DNA from: Felis catus | Taxonomy: Eukaryota | Assembly (NCBI RefSeq): GCF_018350175.1 | Contig: NC_058368.1 | Location: 39,744,001-39,808,000, forward strand | Direction of reading: 5' to 3' | Length of the DNA stretch: 64,000 nucleotides | Shown here: positions 15,705-53,304 of the stretch, in pieces | Layout of the letters: every line of letters starts with the position of its first letter | Position numbering within the stretch: position 1 is the first letter of the stretch | The notes under the pieces: model-generated | What the model saw: the letters and a program-made list of their open reading frames with translations, nothing else | Databases searched by the model: none | Told to the model about the DNA's origin: nothing | Made by a program: the position numbers and the translations under genes

Positions 15705-15929
15705 TTTTTATTTTTATTTTTTCAACGTCTATTTATTTTTGGGACAGAGAGAGACAGAGCATGAACGGGGGAGGGGCAGAGAGAGAGGGAGACACAGAAT
15801 CGGAAACAGGCTCCAGGCTCCAAGCCAGCCATCAGCCCAGAGCCTGACGCGGGGCTCGAACTCACGGACCGCGAGATCGTGACCTGGCTGAAGTCGGACG
15901 CTTAACCGACTGCGCCACCCAGGCGCCCC
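15705..15929 (-). mobile_element. Young SINEC_Fc-type SINE inserted into the TSD of the previous SINE
   Basis: CpG-intact; perfect 15-bp TSD GTCCTTACATTTTTA at 15690-15704 and 15930-15944. Confidence 0.95.
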
Positions 15930-16920: not shown

Positions 16921-17164
16921 TGGGGCGCCTGGGTGGCGCAGTCGGTTAAGCGTCCGACTTCAGCCAGGTCACGATCTCACGGTCCGTGAGTTCGAGCCCC
17001 GCGTCAGTTCGAGCCCCGCGTCGGGTTCTGGGCTGATGGCTCGGAGCCTGGAGCCTGTTTCCGATTCTGTGTCTCCCTCTCTCTCTGCCCCTCCCCCGTT
17101 CATGCTCTGTCTCTCTCTGTCCCAAAAATAAATAAACGTTGAAAAAAAAAATTTAAAAAAAAAA
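16921..17164 (+). mobile_element. Young SINEC_Fc-type SINE with duplicated B-box
   Basis: Perfect 16-bp TSD AGAAAAGTAAACAAGC (16905-16920, 17165-17180); AGTTCGAGCCCCGCGTC occurs twice in tandem. Confidence 0.95.
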
Positions 17165-28840: not shown

Positions 28841-29355
28841 GTAAATTGAGTTTTGTTTCAGCTTATCTTGACTTCACAGATCAACATTTCAGAATTTCCA
28901 TATATATTATTCAACTATTTTACTGTCTCACATTTTCCTAGTCTACCTCCCAAACCTCACACTTTACTAAAATTTGTCTACTTTTAACAATTCAGCTTAA
29001 ATTTCTTATTTTTCCTAAAATCTCTGTTGTCCTTTCTGTTCATTCCATAATATTGTTTTCCGTAAAATCTAAAGATTTCAATATTCAAACAATTGCTTAG
29101 GAATTATTTAAAAGTACACAATAAACCTTCTTGAATTATTTTATTCATTTAATTTTATTCTTTAGAAAATGCACTATAAGATTTTTTTCTCATTACTGAT
29201 CATTTAATCTCTTTGATAAGTGTTATATGCAATTACATTGTGGAGGAAGGCAAATGAAGCTAGGAATGTAAATATTAAAAAAAATGAATTGAAAAATGAC
29301 TAAGTAAATAATTTGAGAGGTTTTACATGAGGTGTGTTGATAATGTGGCATAAAC

Positions 29356-29415
29356 TGAAGACTTCAAACTAATAAGTTTGAAGACTTCAAACTAATAAAT
29401 TGAAAACTTCAAACT
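29356..29415. repeat. 22-23-bp tandem repeat with internal palindromes
   Basis: TGAAGACTTCAAACTAATAAGTT, about 2.7 copies. Confidence 0.9.
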
Positions 29416-30930: not shown

Positions 30931-31121
30931 TGGGGCGCCTGGATGGCTCAGTCTGTTAAGTGTCGGACTTCAGCCTAGGTCATGATGGTGCACTCCGTGG
31001 GTCAGCTGTGCTGACAGTTCAGAGCCTGGAGCCGGCCTCAGATGCTGTGTCTCCCTCTCTCTACCCCTCCCCTGCTTGTGCTCTCTCTCTCTCAAAAATA
31101 AATAAACGTTATTTTTTTTAA
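30931..31121 (+). mobile_element. CAN-SINE lacking the B-box segment
   Basis: CCGTGGGT joins CAGCTGTGCTGACAG; 17-bp TSD AAAATGATGAACATATT. Confidence 0.9.
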
Positions 31122-31169
31122 AAAATGATGAACATATTACACAATATTTGTAAATTTAGATGCATACTT

Positions 31170-31394
31170 TTTTTTTTTTAATTTTTTTCCAACGTTTATT
31201 TATTTTTGGGACAGAGAGAGACAGAGCATGAACGGGGGAGGGGCAGAGAGAGAGGGAGACACAGAATCAGAAACAGGCTCCAGGCTCTGAGCCATCAGCC
31301 CAGAGCCCGATGCGGGGCTCGAACTCACGGACCCCGCGAGATCGTGACCTGGCTGAAGTCGGACGCTTAACCGACTGCGCCACCCAGGCGCCCC
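31170..31394 (-). mobile_element. Young SINEC_Fc-type SINE
   Basis: Perfect 13-bp TSD TAGATGCATACTT (31157-31169, 31395-31407). Confidence 0.95.
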
Positions 31395-48636: not shown

Positions 48637-49740
48637 AACAGCAGCTTTAAAAAGTATACAAATATATATAGTTTTTAGGGGCCACAAACATAAGCCCCAC
48701 TAGCTACCAGAGCTAGGTCGTCTGAAGGTGTCTCCCAGGAAGCAGTTGCAAAAATTAGGGCTCCAGATGAATGTATAAGCTCCTTCCTGGAAGATACCTG
48801 TGAGCTGGAACAAGGCAGAGGGAGAGCTCCAAGATGATATCCACAGTCTATGATCCTTGAGAGCAGCTTGGTAGACCACTATGTATCCCAAACTTTGAGC
48901 CTGCCCCTCAGTCTGAATCTCTAGGATGAACAAAGTGGCCTCCTTCACAGAAAAACTGGAGAGTATGCTTCAGTCAGCTGTCTTTACGGTACCCTGGGGG
49001 GTTGTAGCCTTCCAAGAATCATCCTGGATGGCTACTGTCCTGTGGGATGAGGAAAACAGGGCATCCTCTAGGACATGCGTAAAGCACCCCTGCAGGAGAG
49101 AATGGTGCTCTGTAGCACAGCAGAAAGTGAGTGTGATTATACCCACTCTCCAAAGTCTCTGGAAAAGATTACAGTCCATGCCTAAATGTGTGTTTAATAG
49201 AAGCCTGTCCCTCTGGCCAGTCATGATAATTAGCTGATAGACTTCTTTCAGAGAAAAAAACAGAGTTCCTTTGTCCATTGCCTCTTGTTGTGGCCTCTTG
49301 CTCTGTTGGTTACAGTCCTGTGGGACCCACAACTTAAGCTCCATTGCCCACCACAGCCTGGAAATGCAGAGATCGCAAAAATTGGGGGACCAGAAAGGGA
49401 TATGAGCTCTTTTTTGGTGACACTGATTATTACAGTCCCATGGCCAAGAAGCCAAGCTTCCCTGGCGCCCATAGCCAGGCAATGAAGAGGCATCCCCTGT
49501 GCGGCAGCTGCAGAAGTCAAGGCACCAGAAGTGTGTAAAGGTTCCCTTCTGGCAGATACTGGTGCTCTGAAGCATGGCAAAGGGGGCCACTTTAAACACT
49601 TTAAAATTGTTAAAACCTTGTAAAGTATGTTTGTTAAGCTTGAAAGTTGATGGAAATAAGACTAAGGGAGAAGGAAATTGGGAGTAAAAATTACAGTAGT
49701 AGATTCAAAATACCGATTGCTCTATTTAAAAAATAAAACT

Positions 49741-49899
49741 GGGGTGCCTGGGTGGCTCAGTAAGTTAAACGTCAGACTTTGGCTAATGTCATGATCTCGC
49801 AGTTGGTGAGTTTGAGTCTCACGTCGGGCTCTGTGCTGACAGCTCAGAGCCTGGAGCCTGCTTCCAATTCTGTGTCTCCTTCTCTCTTTGCCCCTCTCC

Positions 49900-49945
<46 letters not shown>

Positions 49946-49981
49946 CTCAAAAATAAAGAAACATTAAAAATTAAAAAAAAT
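49741..49981 (+). mobile_element. CAN-SINE
   Basis: TSD AAAATAAAACT. Confidence 0.95.
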
Positions 49982-50939
49982 AAAATAAAACTATTCAGCG
50001 ATCAAAGACAAAAGCCGCATCATAGATGGTGTGTGGTTATGTTACTATTTCTAAATATCTGATCAGGATAAACATAATTATAAAATCTTCATGCAAACAT
50101 GTAGTTTAATTATACTATAATTATAGTACTTGTGCTAACCCTACCCTAAATGTATGTTAAAATTTTCGACTTAACATATTTATTAGTTAAACTGAAGAAT
50201 CTTTTGCTGGACAAATAAATAAAATTCCCAACTCTATAAAAACATCCCATTAAAAATCAGAAATTTATTCACTGGTTGATAGTTACTGAATAAACTGCAT
50301 AATTAAAATTACATAATTATAAACTTCACGCATCCCATGAGATAGGAAATTTCTCAATGTGATAAAGTGCTTCAATGAAAAACCTATAGTTGATGCTATA
50401 CTGAATAGTGATATATTGACATTTTTTTTGTAAGATTGGAAAAAAAAAGATATTCAACCTCATCTGTTCTTGTCAACATTTTACTCGAAGTCCTAATATT
50501 GCAATAAAGCAAGGCAAAAACATAAAAACCATTAAGATTGTAAATTAAGATAAAGTTCAAAATTAAATACTGCAAATTGAGATAGGAAAACATGAACAGA
50601 GTAGCAAAAGATTGCAAAAATTAAAAATAAATATTGAAATAATAAACCTTAATTCAGATATTACAATTATATTTCACATATATTTTTTTAAATATTGGAA
50701 AGAGTTAAACAATTTAACATATCCTTAAATAAATTATGATGTGTCCCGTATAATAGTTCCAAGCAGCTGTATAGTGTTATATTGTCCATATATTCACCAT
50801 CTTATCTTTCAATGGCCATGTTGAACATTTTGGAAAATGCTAGAGAAAAAACCCTGGTGAATCCTTAATGTTAATACCGAAAGTCCCAGAGGATTTTTAA
50901 CCAAGTAGTACAGACTGCTTTTTAACATGTCCATTATTT

Positions 50940-51168
50940 TTTTTTTAATTTTTTTCAACGTTTATTTATTTTTGCGACAGAGAGAGACAGAGAGAGACAG
51001 AGCATGAACGGGGGAGGGGCAGAGAGAGAGGGAGACACAGAATCGGAAACAGGCTCCAGGCTCCGAGCCATCAGCCCAGAGCCCGACGCGGGGCTCGAAC
51101 TCACGGACCGAGAGATAGTGACCTGGCTGAAGTCGGACGCTTAACCGACTGCGCCACCCAGGCACCCC
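50940..51168 (-). mobile_element. Young SINEC_Fc-type SINE (left arm of the inverted pair)
   Basis: TSD CATGTCCATTATTT at 50926-50939 and 51171-51184. Confidence 0.95.
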
Positions 51169-51356
51169 ATCATGTCCATTATTTAAAAGAGTGTTATAGG
51201 GGTGCCCCATCATGTCCATTATTTAAAAGAGTGTTATAGGGGCGCCCCATCATGTCCATTATTTAAAAGTGTTATAAGGGCGCCCCATCATGTCCATTAT
51301 TTAAAAGAGTGTTATAGGGGTGCCCCATCATGTCCATTATTTAAAAGAGTGTTATA
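51169..51356. repeat. 40-bp minisatellite, 5 copies
   Basis: ATCATGTCCATTATTTAAAAGAGTGTTATA + GGGGYGCCCC; copies start at 51169, 51209, 51249, 51287 and 51327. Confidence 0.95.
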
Positions 51357-51573
51357 GGGGCGCCTGGGTGGCGCAGTCGGTTAAGCGTCCGACTTCAGCC
51401 AGGTCACGATCTCGCGGTCCGTGAGTTCGAGCCCCGCGTTGGGCTCTGGGCTGATGGCTCGGAGCCTGGAGCCTGTTTCCGATTCTGTGTCTCCCTCTCT
51501 CTCTGCCCCTCCCCCGTTCATGCTCTGTCTCTCTCTGTCGCAAAAATAAATAAATGTTGAAAAAAAAAATTTA
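51357..51573 (+). mobile_element. Young SINEC_Fc-type SINE (right arm of the inverted pair)
   Basis: TSD AAAA(G/A)AGTGTTAT at 51343-51355 and 51574-51586. Confidence 0.95.
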
Positions 51574-51902
51574 AAAAAAGTGTTATTTTCAAATGTATTT
51601 ACATTTCATAAAAGTCATTGCTTGTGTAGAATTATGTTTTAATTCAGAATATCATGAGATCATGTTTTGCTTGTATTGGCTATTTAATGTAAAAAAACAA
51701 AACAAAACAGAAATAAAATATCTACTATTTTAATGCCTCTTTAAGAGACAGTATTTGCTATTCCTTTTTTATACAGGGACTCCCTTCTAGTTTACAATTG
51801 CTAGTTTTTTGCTAGTGAGATGACCCACCTTCCATGATTCTCTCTACTCTTAAGCAGAAAATAGAATTTACAAATTTTACAATAACAGAGAAGCACTACA
51901 CA

Positions 51903-52119
51903 TTTTTTTAAATGTTTATTTATTTTGAGAGGGAGGAAGAATGAGTGCACATGGGTGCAAGCACATAGGGGCAGAGAGAAGGAGACACAGAATCCCAAGC
52001 ACGGTCTGTGCTGTCTGCACAGAGCCCTATGTAGAGATCGATCTCATAAACCATGAGATCATGACCTGAGCTGAAATCAAGAATCAGACGCTCAACCAAC
52101 TGAGGCATCCAGGCGCCCC
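51903..52119 (-). mobile_element. CAN-SINE
   Basis: Reverse SINE ending CCAGGCGCCCC. Confidence 0.95.
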
Positions 52120-53304
52120 ACATCTTTTAAGTGACCATAACATCTTAATTATTTCAGCAAAAAAAAAAAAAAACCAAAAGATTATAGTAGCTCTGCAATC
52201 AGATAATTATATATTTGGTGGGATTCCTACAAGATATTCACATATTGTTTCTCATTAAAGTGTGCTCACTTATATACCTTATATTATTATCTAGAAAGCC
52301 TAAAAGTAAGGATAAATACTTGAGTTCATTTCCATTCACAACAGTTTAGAATCATTCCCTATGTTATCTCAAATATCAGTAATTTGTGTTTTAAGATCTT
52401 AACAGCACACATAACTTTTTGCCTTTTCATCATAATATCTTCCTCAATCTAATCTCTGCCTTCATACTGGGGAATTATGTTAATAAGTTCCTTTCTTGAG
52501 TCTTCCAAAAAAAGTAGAAATTTCCCTATAACGGTTTAAAACCTTTGTTTAATAAAACAGAAATTTTATATTTTGAGACTTTTTAATGTTTGTCATTAGA
52601 ATATACATTTATCCCAGTAGATAAATATAATGTGCATATTCTCTTGTATTTAGGGAAATAGATTAAAGCCTCACATTTTTGTCCATTTAGTGAGTTCTTT
52701 ATGTCAATGTGGCATAAGCTGGATATTTTTATAACTTAAATTTGTTCAAATGAACACTGTGTTCATATGTAGGCATTCACATCTCAGCCTGAAAAGATGC
52801 CTGTCTATTCTCACCTTTTCCCCCTTGTGATCACAGCATTTTAATTGTCACCAAAGAACCAAAAGAGTTCTGTGTGCAGAGACATTGACAGCCCCATAAT
52901 GAAGATATGTGAATAGTAAAATGGCAAGACTTTTAGAGCTGTATACATTATGAAAAGGTTAATGAGTAGTGCTACCCACAGAGCACAATTTAGCTGACTT
53001 CGAAATTTTATTGATGAGAAAACTTTTGATTTTCTTTTTGAGGACTATGTTCTTGATGATACTTATTAGCTTCACAAAAGAAAGTACACATTTATGTCTT
53101 GTTAATTGAAATGATTTTTAAGCTGCAGGAATACGGACTGCCATTTCAAAATATTTATATTTCTGAGTGGCTAACTTATTGCTTGTTGGATATACAAGTA
53201 GTGCAGAATTGTTGTTTTCCCTATTATGTTGCATTTGTTGCCTCTCCTTAGATGTAGGCTGAAAAATAATTAGTAATAAAAATAATGTTAATAATTATAG
53301 CAAT

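Follow-up and report, generated by a model that had tools for sequence, protein, structure and literature searches.

A young minisatellite between two head-to-head CAN-SINEs of the cat, with a proposed origin at their self-complementary heads

In the cat, two young CAN-SINEs lie head to head at a single L1 target site and enclose a five-unit tandem array, the units of which are mostly made of target-site DNA. We best explain this locus, with a probability of roughly 0.7, as a young, probably neutral minisatellite that arose through two insertions, a duplication at the overlap of the two SINE heads, and subsequent growth. The first duplication of a minisatellite is rarely visible; at this one locus, the sequence reveals the empty site, the two insertions and the first junction. 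Positions given below are those of the window, i.e. the whole 64-kb stretch of DNA that was analysed. The papers referred to by PMC number, as well as 10.1101/2020.11.30.405357, are cited from excerpts, and statements about them apply to those passages.

The SINE pair and its insertion site

The left SINE (50940-51168, minus strand) is full length with an A-rich tail, the boundary of which is approximate as it falls within a T run. The CpG of its head, GGGGTGCC, has decayed, and it carries a private 10-bp duplication in the CT tract. The right SINE (51357-51575, plus strand) is also full length and has an intact head, GGGGCGCC, while its tail end (~51575) falls within an A run and is likewise approximate. 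A CT tract, AATAAA repeats, an A tail and a target-site duplication of its own were found for each of the two. Both arms contain the GGCTCGG motif of the tRNA-related region, which defines felid CanSINE subfamily II (PMC4084570). Within this subfamily, subtype IIB is described as having a T>G change in the A box, as being equivalent to SINEC_Fc1 and as dating to the last 5 million years (PMC4084570). The A box of the arms is GGTGGCGCAG, compared with GGTGGCTCAG in an older copy at 49741, which fits IIB at the level of the box rather than of the exact diagnostic position of PMC4084570; both SINEs are probably members of subtype IIB (SINEC_Fc1).

The sequence-only reading had described the pair as near-identical inverted arms, and this was confirmed by a match in two parts, of 183 nt (98%) and 56 nt (89%). 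Compared with each other, the arms showed five substitutions and one 10-bp indel over ~204 nt. Each of them differed at 5-7 positions of 200 from three of the other young window copies and at 14-15 from a fourth, so the near identity of the arms reflects their youth and no special relation. Among 28 neighbouring pairs from 29 SINE-like matches, this was the closest head-to-head pair at 188 bp, followed by one at 735 bp. A C>G variant ahead of the tail, GTCGCAAAAAT, is common to both arms (51540 on the plus strand, 50975 on the minus strand). This variant was found in none of the four other young window copies and in none of the six sequences written out in the supplements of PMC4084570, where dotted alignment rows could conceal it; either one source gene or a short conversion between the arms would explain it. 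Elsewhere in the window, the region 30932-31394 holds a tail-to-tail pair, 79 bp apart, of an old SINE on the plus strand and a young one on the minus strand. The young SINE at 16922-17142 contains a 17-bp tandem duplication (16985-17022), and the young copies at 15722-15929 and 31190-31394 contain insertions of 4 bp and 2 bp, respectively.

The left SINE is flanked by CATGTCCATTATTT at 50926 and 51171. Its outer target copy (50926-50939, plus strand) is a 14-bp exact match, or 16 bp with one mismatch from 50924, and the six occurrences of CATGTCCATTATTT correspond to the five units and this outer copy. The right SINE is flanked by AAAAGTGTTAT or AGTGTTAT. Its outer copy (51576-51586, plus strand) reads AAAAGTGTTAT and matches unit 3 over 11 bp and the other units exactly over 8 bp; this 11-mer occurs twice in the 64-kb window, in unit 3 (51265) and in the outer right target copy (51576). 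The spacer between the heads consists of the two inner target duplications abutting at TTT/AAA (the slash marking the nick) plus three extra bases, making 30 bp, in agreement with the original head spacing claimed by the sequence-only reading. For comparison, the modal duplication of young dog Can-SINEs is 15 bp (10.1101/2020.11.30.405357), and by our own arithmetic two of these would make a spacer of ~30 bp.

The L1 target is 5'-TTTTAA-3' (PMC3215922), and at this site one position reads TTTT/AA on the bottom strand and ATTT/AA on the top strand. The same position is thus nickable by L1 on either strand, and both insertions could have taken place there, one after the other and on opposite strands. 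We infer a shared nick between 51184 and 51185 (TTT/AAA); tails and T/A runs overlap. The claim of two separate L1-mediated SINE insertions at one TTT/AAA site was upheld by their own target duplications and different tails. In the first step of our explanation, which the sequence itself records, two CAN-SINEs inserted in turn at a TTTAAA site that the L1 endonuclease could nick on both strands. The first insertion left the site intact beside its head and the second used the opposite strand, after which the heads were parted by the two inner target duplications and three bases, that is, by 30 bp. The mechanism of this step is that of established L1 biology. Three other origins of the pair or its array were rejected by inspection. 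The separate target duplications and different tails rule out a fold-back copy of one SINE from the other; had both SINEs inserted at once at a blunt break, neither spacer nor duplications would be left; and repeated insertion and deletion at the site would yield half-spacers and not whole units.

The array, its first duplication and its growth

The array spans 51161-51364 and was recovered by TRF with a period of 40, 5.2 copies, 93% matches and a score of 366, the highest of all 28 TRF rows of the window. Its units start at 51169, 51209, 51249, 51287 and 51327 and are thus spaced by 40, 40, 38 and 40. The 30-bp spacer (51169-51198) has five matches in the window, every one of them inside the array; the earlier count of five spacers with this period was therefore correct. 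All units are in direct orientation, and being head-to-tail units of 10-100 bp they constitute a minisatellite. Its copy number may differ between alleles, as in a VNTR. Three types of unit follow one another in the order A B C A B. Unit 1 (51169-51208, plus strand) is of type A and consists of the 30-bp spacer and the junction GGGGTGCCCC; unit 4 (51287-51326, plus strand) has the same sequence. Unit 2 (51209-51248, plus strand) is of type B, in which the spacer is followed by GGGGCGCCCC, a perfect 10-bp palindrome. Unit 3 (51249-51286, plus strand), of type C, is 38 bp long, with AAAAG in place of AAAAGAG and AGGGCGCCCC as its junction. Lastly, the fifth spacer (51327-51356, plus strand; the last B) continues into the head of the right SINE. 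Overall, 30 of the 40 bases of a unit are target-site DNA and 10 are SINE head, and the array overlaps with either SINE by at most 8-10 bases. An additional tandem repeat of three 23-bp copies, unrelated to SINE heads, is found at 29350-29415 (TRF score 102).

All four junctions are made of right-head letters followed by left-head letters. The motif GGGGYGCCCC, by which the copies were said to be joined, matches three of the four and fails at the third, which is AGGGCGCCCC; it has one unrelated occurrence elsewhere in the window (59691) and none in shuffles. The hexamer within is GGCGCC at the right end and in junctions 2 and 3, GGTGCC in junctions 1 and 4, as expected from the CpG-type unit variants previously pointed out, and GGCACC at the left end; junction and end hexamers differ only at the CpG. 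On the plus strand the left head reads CAGGCACCCC and not GGCGCCCC, and the A of its GGCACC appears in none of the four junctions. The overlap of the heads at GGCGCC that the sequence-only reading had invoked is hence intact on the right side, but on the left side the hexamer is a reconstruction.

More specifically, GGCGCC (positions 3-8) is the sole self-complementary word of at least 6 bases in the arm, among nine such words of at least 4, and it adjoins the loop. Wherever the arm has a self-complementary word, the inverted pair holds that word as a direct repeat, and a slip or unequal exchange at GGCGCC gives exactly a GG-GGCGCC-CC junction and a 40-bp unit. Other 6-bp direct words common to the arms span at least 56 bp in the one-spacer state and at least 244 bp today. 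In today's heads, 5 of the 6 bp of the hexamer match and the exact overlap is limited to CC at the 3' end. A first duplication joined at the overlap of the two heads is supported, and all 6 bp may have been intact at that time. GGCGCC is intact in five of the six young copies and in two of the 16 older ones (7 of 22 full-length SINE matches in the window). Based on its retention in young copies, both heads probably had it at first, and its loss, mostly through CpG, would make for a short-lived seed. The A of the left head either decayed after the joining or indicates that the join used only CC. We propose, as a second step, that GGCGCC, being self-complementary, would have turned the inverted heads into a direct repeat 40 bp apart, at which a single slippage or unequal exchange would have created the GG-GGCGCC-CC junction and a second spacer, as in Haber-Louis seeding.

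Units 1-2 are the same as units 4-5, with an 82-base exact match at lag 118. Possible histories were searched exhaustively over single-site changes, tandem duplications and deletions, with up to 6 units. The shortest history by single-round tandem duplication comprised 6 events, 3 of them duplications, the CpG change following the first of these. One amplification with four later changes comprised 5 events and was counted as short as the stepwise history; it requires two parallel CpG hits, with a probability of ~0.045. CpG transitions were estimated at ~0.08 per strand-site from the six young copies. Stepwise growth explains the identity of units 1-2 and 4-5 without parallel hits, and the presence of three distinct unit types with CpG-type changes fits inheritance. 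On this pattern of unit types, stepwise growth is favoured over a single amplification. In such a third step, full-unit homology would have supported growth to five units, most simply by about three duplications with a CpG change between them (A B C A B).

The reconstruction of the empty site held with respect to the TTT/AAA insertion site, but its sequence is ambiguous at two places: AAAAG or AAAAGAG, and AACATG, as in the outer left copy, or ATCATG, as in every unit. In the former case, either the site was AAAAG and four units later gained 2 bp, or it was AAAAGAG and two separate losses removed the same bases. Event counts are tied, at 7 for AAAAG first and at 6 plus 1 for the outer copy for AAAAGAG first. 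The 2-bp deletion reported for one unit is accordingly a genuine 2-bp indel of ambiguous direction, since unit 3, at 38 bp, is an exact match to the outer target copy.

The inverted arms and other routes to the array

The hairpin formed by the arms may have raised the odds of the second step. From the spacings involved, the 30-bp pair was plausibly unstable and today's 188-bp pair is plausibly less so. In the dog, close and similar inverted SINEC_Cf pairs are rare within ~75-100 bp (10.1101/2020.10.27.358119). A larger role for the arms would be that a hairpin or cruciform of the 30-bp-spaced arms stalled or broke the replication fork, and that one or two events of microhomology-mediated repair synthesis then produced several copies of the loop, with point changes occurring later. 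We consider this account improbable, despite its economy of 5 events. The region folds at -308.5 kcal/mol with a z of -39.6 compared with 20 shuffles, a value due to the complementarity of the arms that restates that property. Fork stalling was reported at inverted Alus 12 bp apart and was not frequent in eukaryotic cells at a 52-bp spacer (PMC7999016), a spacing of 30 bp being outside those passages. Two features could record pairing of the arms, namely the C>G that they share with 0 of 4 other young copies, and the T of junctions 1 and 4, a perfect pairing partner for the left head's A. The shared G can, however, stem from one source gene, and at the above CpG transition rate chance suffices for the T/A pairing. 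Five substitutions between the arms, versus 5-7 to three other young copies, argue against any broad homogenisation, and the repetition of units 1-2 as units 4-5 is accounted for by stepwise growth. Because all units are in direct orientation, the array is not a product of inverted-repeat exchange. Lastly, local duplications or insertions (17, 4 and 2 bp) are present in three of the four other young SINEs, all of them without a young inverted partner nearby, and this counts against the need for a hairpin.

Folding was also considered at the scale of single units. Junction-to-junction stretches of 48-50 nt on the plus strand fold at -6 to -10 kcal/mol; for four of the five, at most 2 of 100 shuffles reached this energy, and for the fifth 25 did. 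The one-unit loop-out folds at -2.1 kcal/mol, a value reached by 47 of 100 shuffles, which suggests that junction palindromes help single-unit slips little. Hairpin-stabilised slippage of single units found no support in this.

The first duplication could instead have been an ordinary short tandem duplication with little or no homology (the 2-bp CC), the SINE heads being at its ends by chance or owing to nicking of the L1 target in the spacer. This would agree with an exact overlap of today's heads of CC only, with the short duplications and insertions of the other young SINEs, and with the finding that flanking direct repeats accompany only 300 of 7,276 human TE-derived tandem repeats (PMC3389668). 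The join, however, coincides with the only self-complementary 6-bp word that the arm contains, which five of the six young window copies have kept, and nicking at TTT/AAA would set the unit boundary in mid-spacer with outer homology at that place, which is absent. We therefore regard such a duplication as very unlikely, and prefer seeding at the overlap of the heads. Just as remote is an assembly or library artefact, in which fewer units exist in the true allele or two haplotypes have been merged into a five-unit mosaic: long inverted repeats that are nearly perfect make difficult templates, but a misjoin at a 6-bp overlap or a looped graph would yield identical copies and not three unit types and three junction types with two differences that are ordinary CpG and slippage changes, a haplotype mosaic would still require arrays in the animal, and the window contains no N.

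The array is probably neutral, no sign of function having been seen. Pfam families were absent from 37 of the 45 stop-to-stop frames of at least 90 aa in the window, a 96-aa frame over the left SINE (50949-51239) being among the eight unscanned, and Rfam gave no match in 49000-53000 at an E value of 0.1. Scans of this type would overlook short exons, and the locus may lie in an intron. In the left flank, 50412-50560 (plus strand) resembles a worn remnant of an L1 ORF2 reverse transcriptase, a 31-aa stop-free piece of which had no match among solved structures. A 244-codon stop-free frame on the minus strand at 48970-49704, within a GC-richer patch and with no Pfam family, is possibly part of an old LTR-type repeat.

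Wider meaning and relation to known systems

Being a single locus with no function seen, this array is a worked example and not a new system. We would extend it only tentatively, and with considerable doubt, to head-to-head CAN-SINE pairs as a recurrent nursery of minisatellites, a general route for which n=1. In this scheme, two-way L1 sites would fix a spacer of ~30 bp, the heads would supply microhomology until their CpG decays, and alleles with a longer loop would escape the instability of the hairpin and persist. If it holds, felid and other carnivore genomes should contain arrays whose units are unique sequences with no relation to one another but share a single fixed palindromic junction; surveys of TE-derived repeats would have missed them, and the two SINEs of each would allow it to be dated. 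Should the pattern recur, comparing pairs whose head palindromes are intact with pairs in which they are not would provide a controlled test of the effect of the arms on loop duplication. Judging from the age of IIB (PMC4084570), the insertions are probably less than 5 million years old, so intermediate states may survive in other cats.

A minisatellite built from the spacer between head-to-head SINEs was not found in our literature search, a weak result since most subscription papers were outside its reach. A self-complementary word that may be present at the head of the dog SINE was not found in three texts. Exact patterns for close head-to-head CAN-SINE heads and for the 3' end of the young SINE each gave 0 stretches in collections of metagenomes, viruses and prokaryotes, in line with the DNA being from the cat.

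The seeding step proposed here resembles the model of Haber and Louis (Genomics 1998; via PMC3389668 and PMC6947457), in which slippage or unequal exchange duplicates a unique stretch lying between direct repeats of 5-10 bp, after which the array expands through homology of full units. A short direct repeat followed by full-unit growth would be common to both. The direct repeat of the cat locus, by contrast, is no chance word: it arises because a self-complementary SINE head is present twice in inverted orientation, at the foot of a possible stem of 200 bp.

Minisatellites derived from SINEs have been described for Alu (Jurka and Gentles 2006) and mouse B1 (Bois et al. 1998), both cited in PMC6947457 and PMC3389668. 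There too, a young SINE gives the short direct repeat that starts the array; their unit, however, is SINE sequence, whereas three quarters of the cat unit (30 of 40 bases) is target-site DNA. In PMC3389668 a tandem repeat is classed as TE-derived if it has at least 70% similarity to a TE or one full period of overlap, and the cat array, with its 10 of 40 bases of SINE head and SINE overlap of no more than 8-10 bases, falls outside this definition. That human survey found an assignable mechanism for ~6% of TE-derived arrays (PMC3389668).

With regard to the pair itself, head-to-head Alu pairs outnumber direct pairs only at spacers of 24-36 bp (3,464 pairs, with a peak at 27-30 bp; Cook et al. 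2011, PMC3215922). The cat pair has the same head-to-head (type 3) orientation. One cat spacer, at 30 bp, lies within this range, but the distance today is 188 bp and the one-spacer state is reconstructed. The cat pair also differs in being made of a carnivore tRNA-derived SINE and in having an amplified spacer. The Alu peak was ascribed to nucleosomes or to anchoring of the L1 endonuclease at the Alu 5' end (PMC3215922), whereas at the cat locus the spacer is nothing more than two target duplications lying end to end at a two-way site. Such abutting duplications would also plainly account for the peak of head-to-head pairs at 27-30 bp.

Among felids, CanSINE hotspots have been reported by Walters-Conte et al. 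(2014, PMC4084570), with repeated independent insertions at one AT-rich site, overlapping target duplications and, in different species, opposite orientations. The cat pair is likewise a repeat insertion at one site in opposite orientation. The 'tandem arrays' of those authors are, however, SINE insertions, and the passages of PMC4084570 available to us mention no amplified spacer. Both halves of the present locus, namely 30-bp head-to-head pairs and seeding by a direct repeat, are thus known, and their combination is new as far as the literature search shows.
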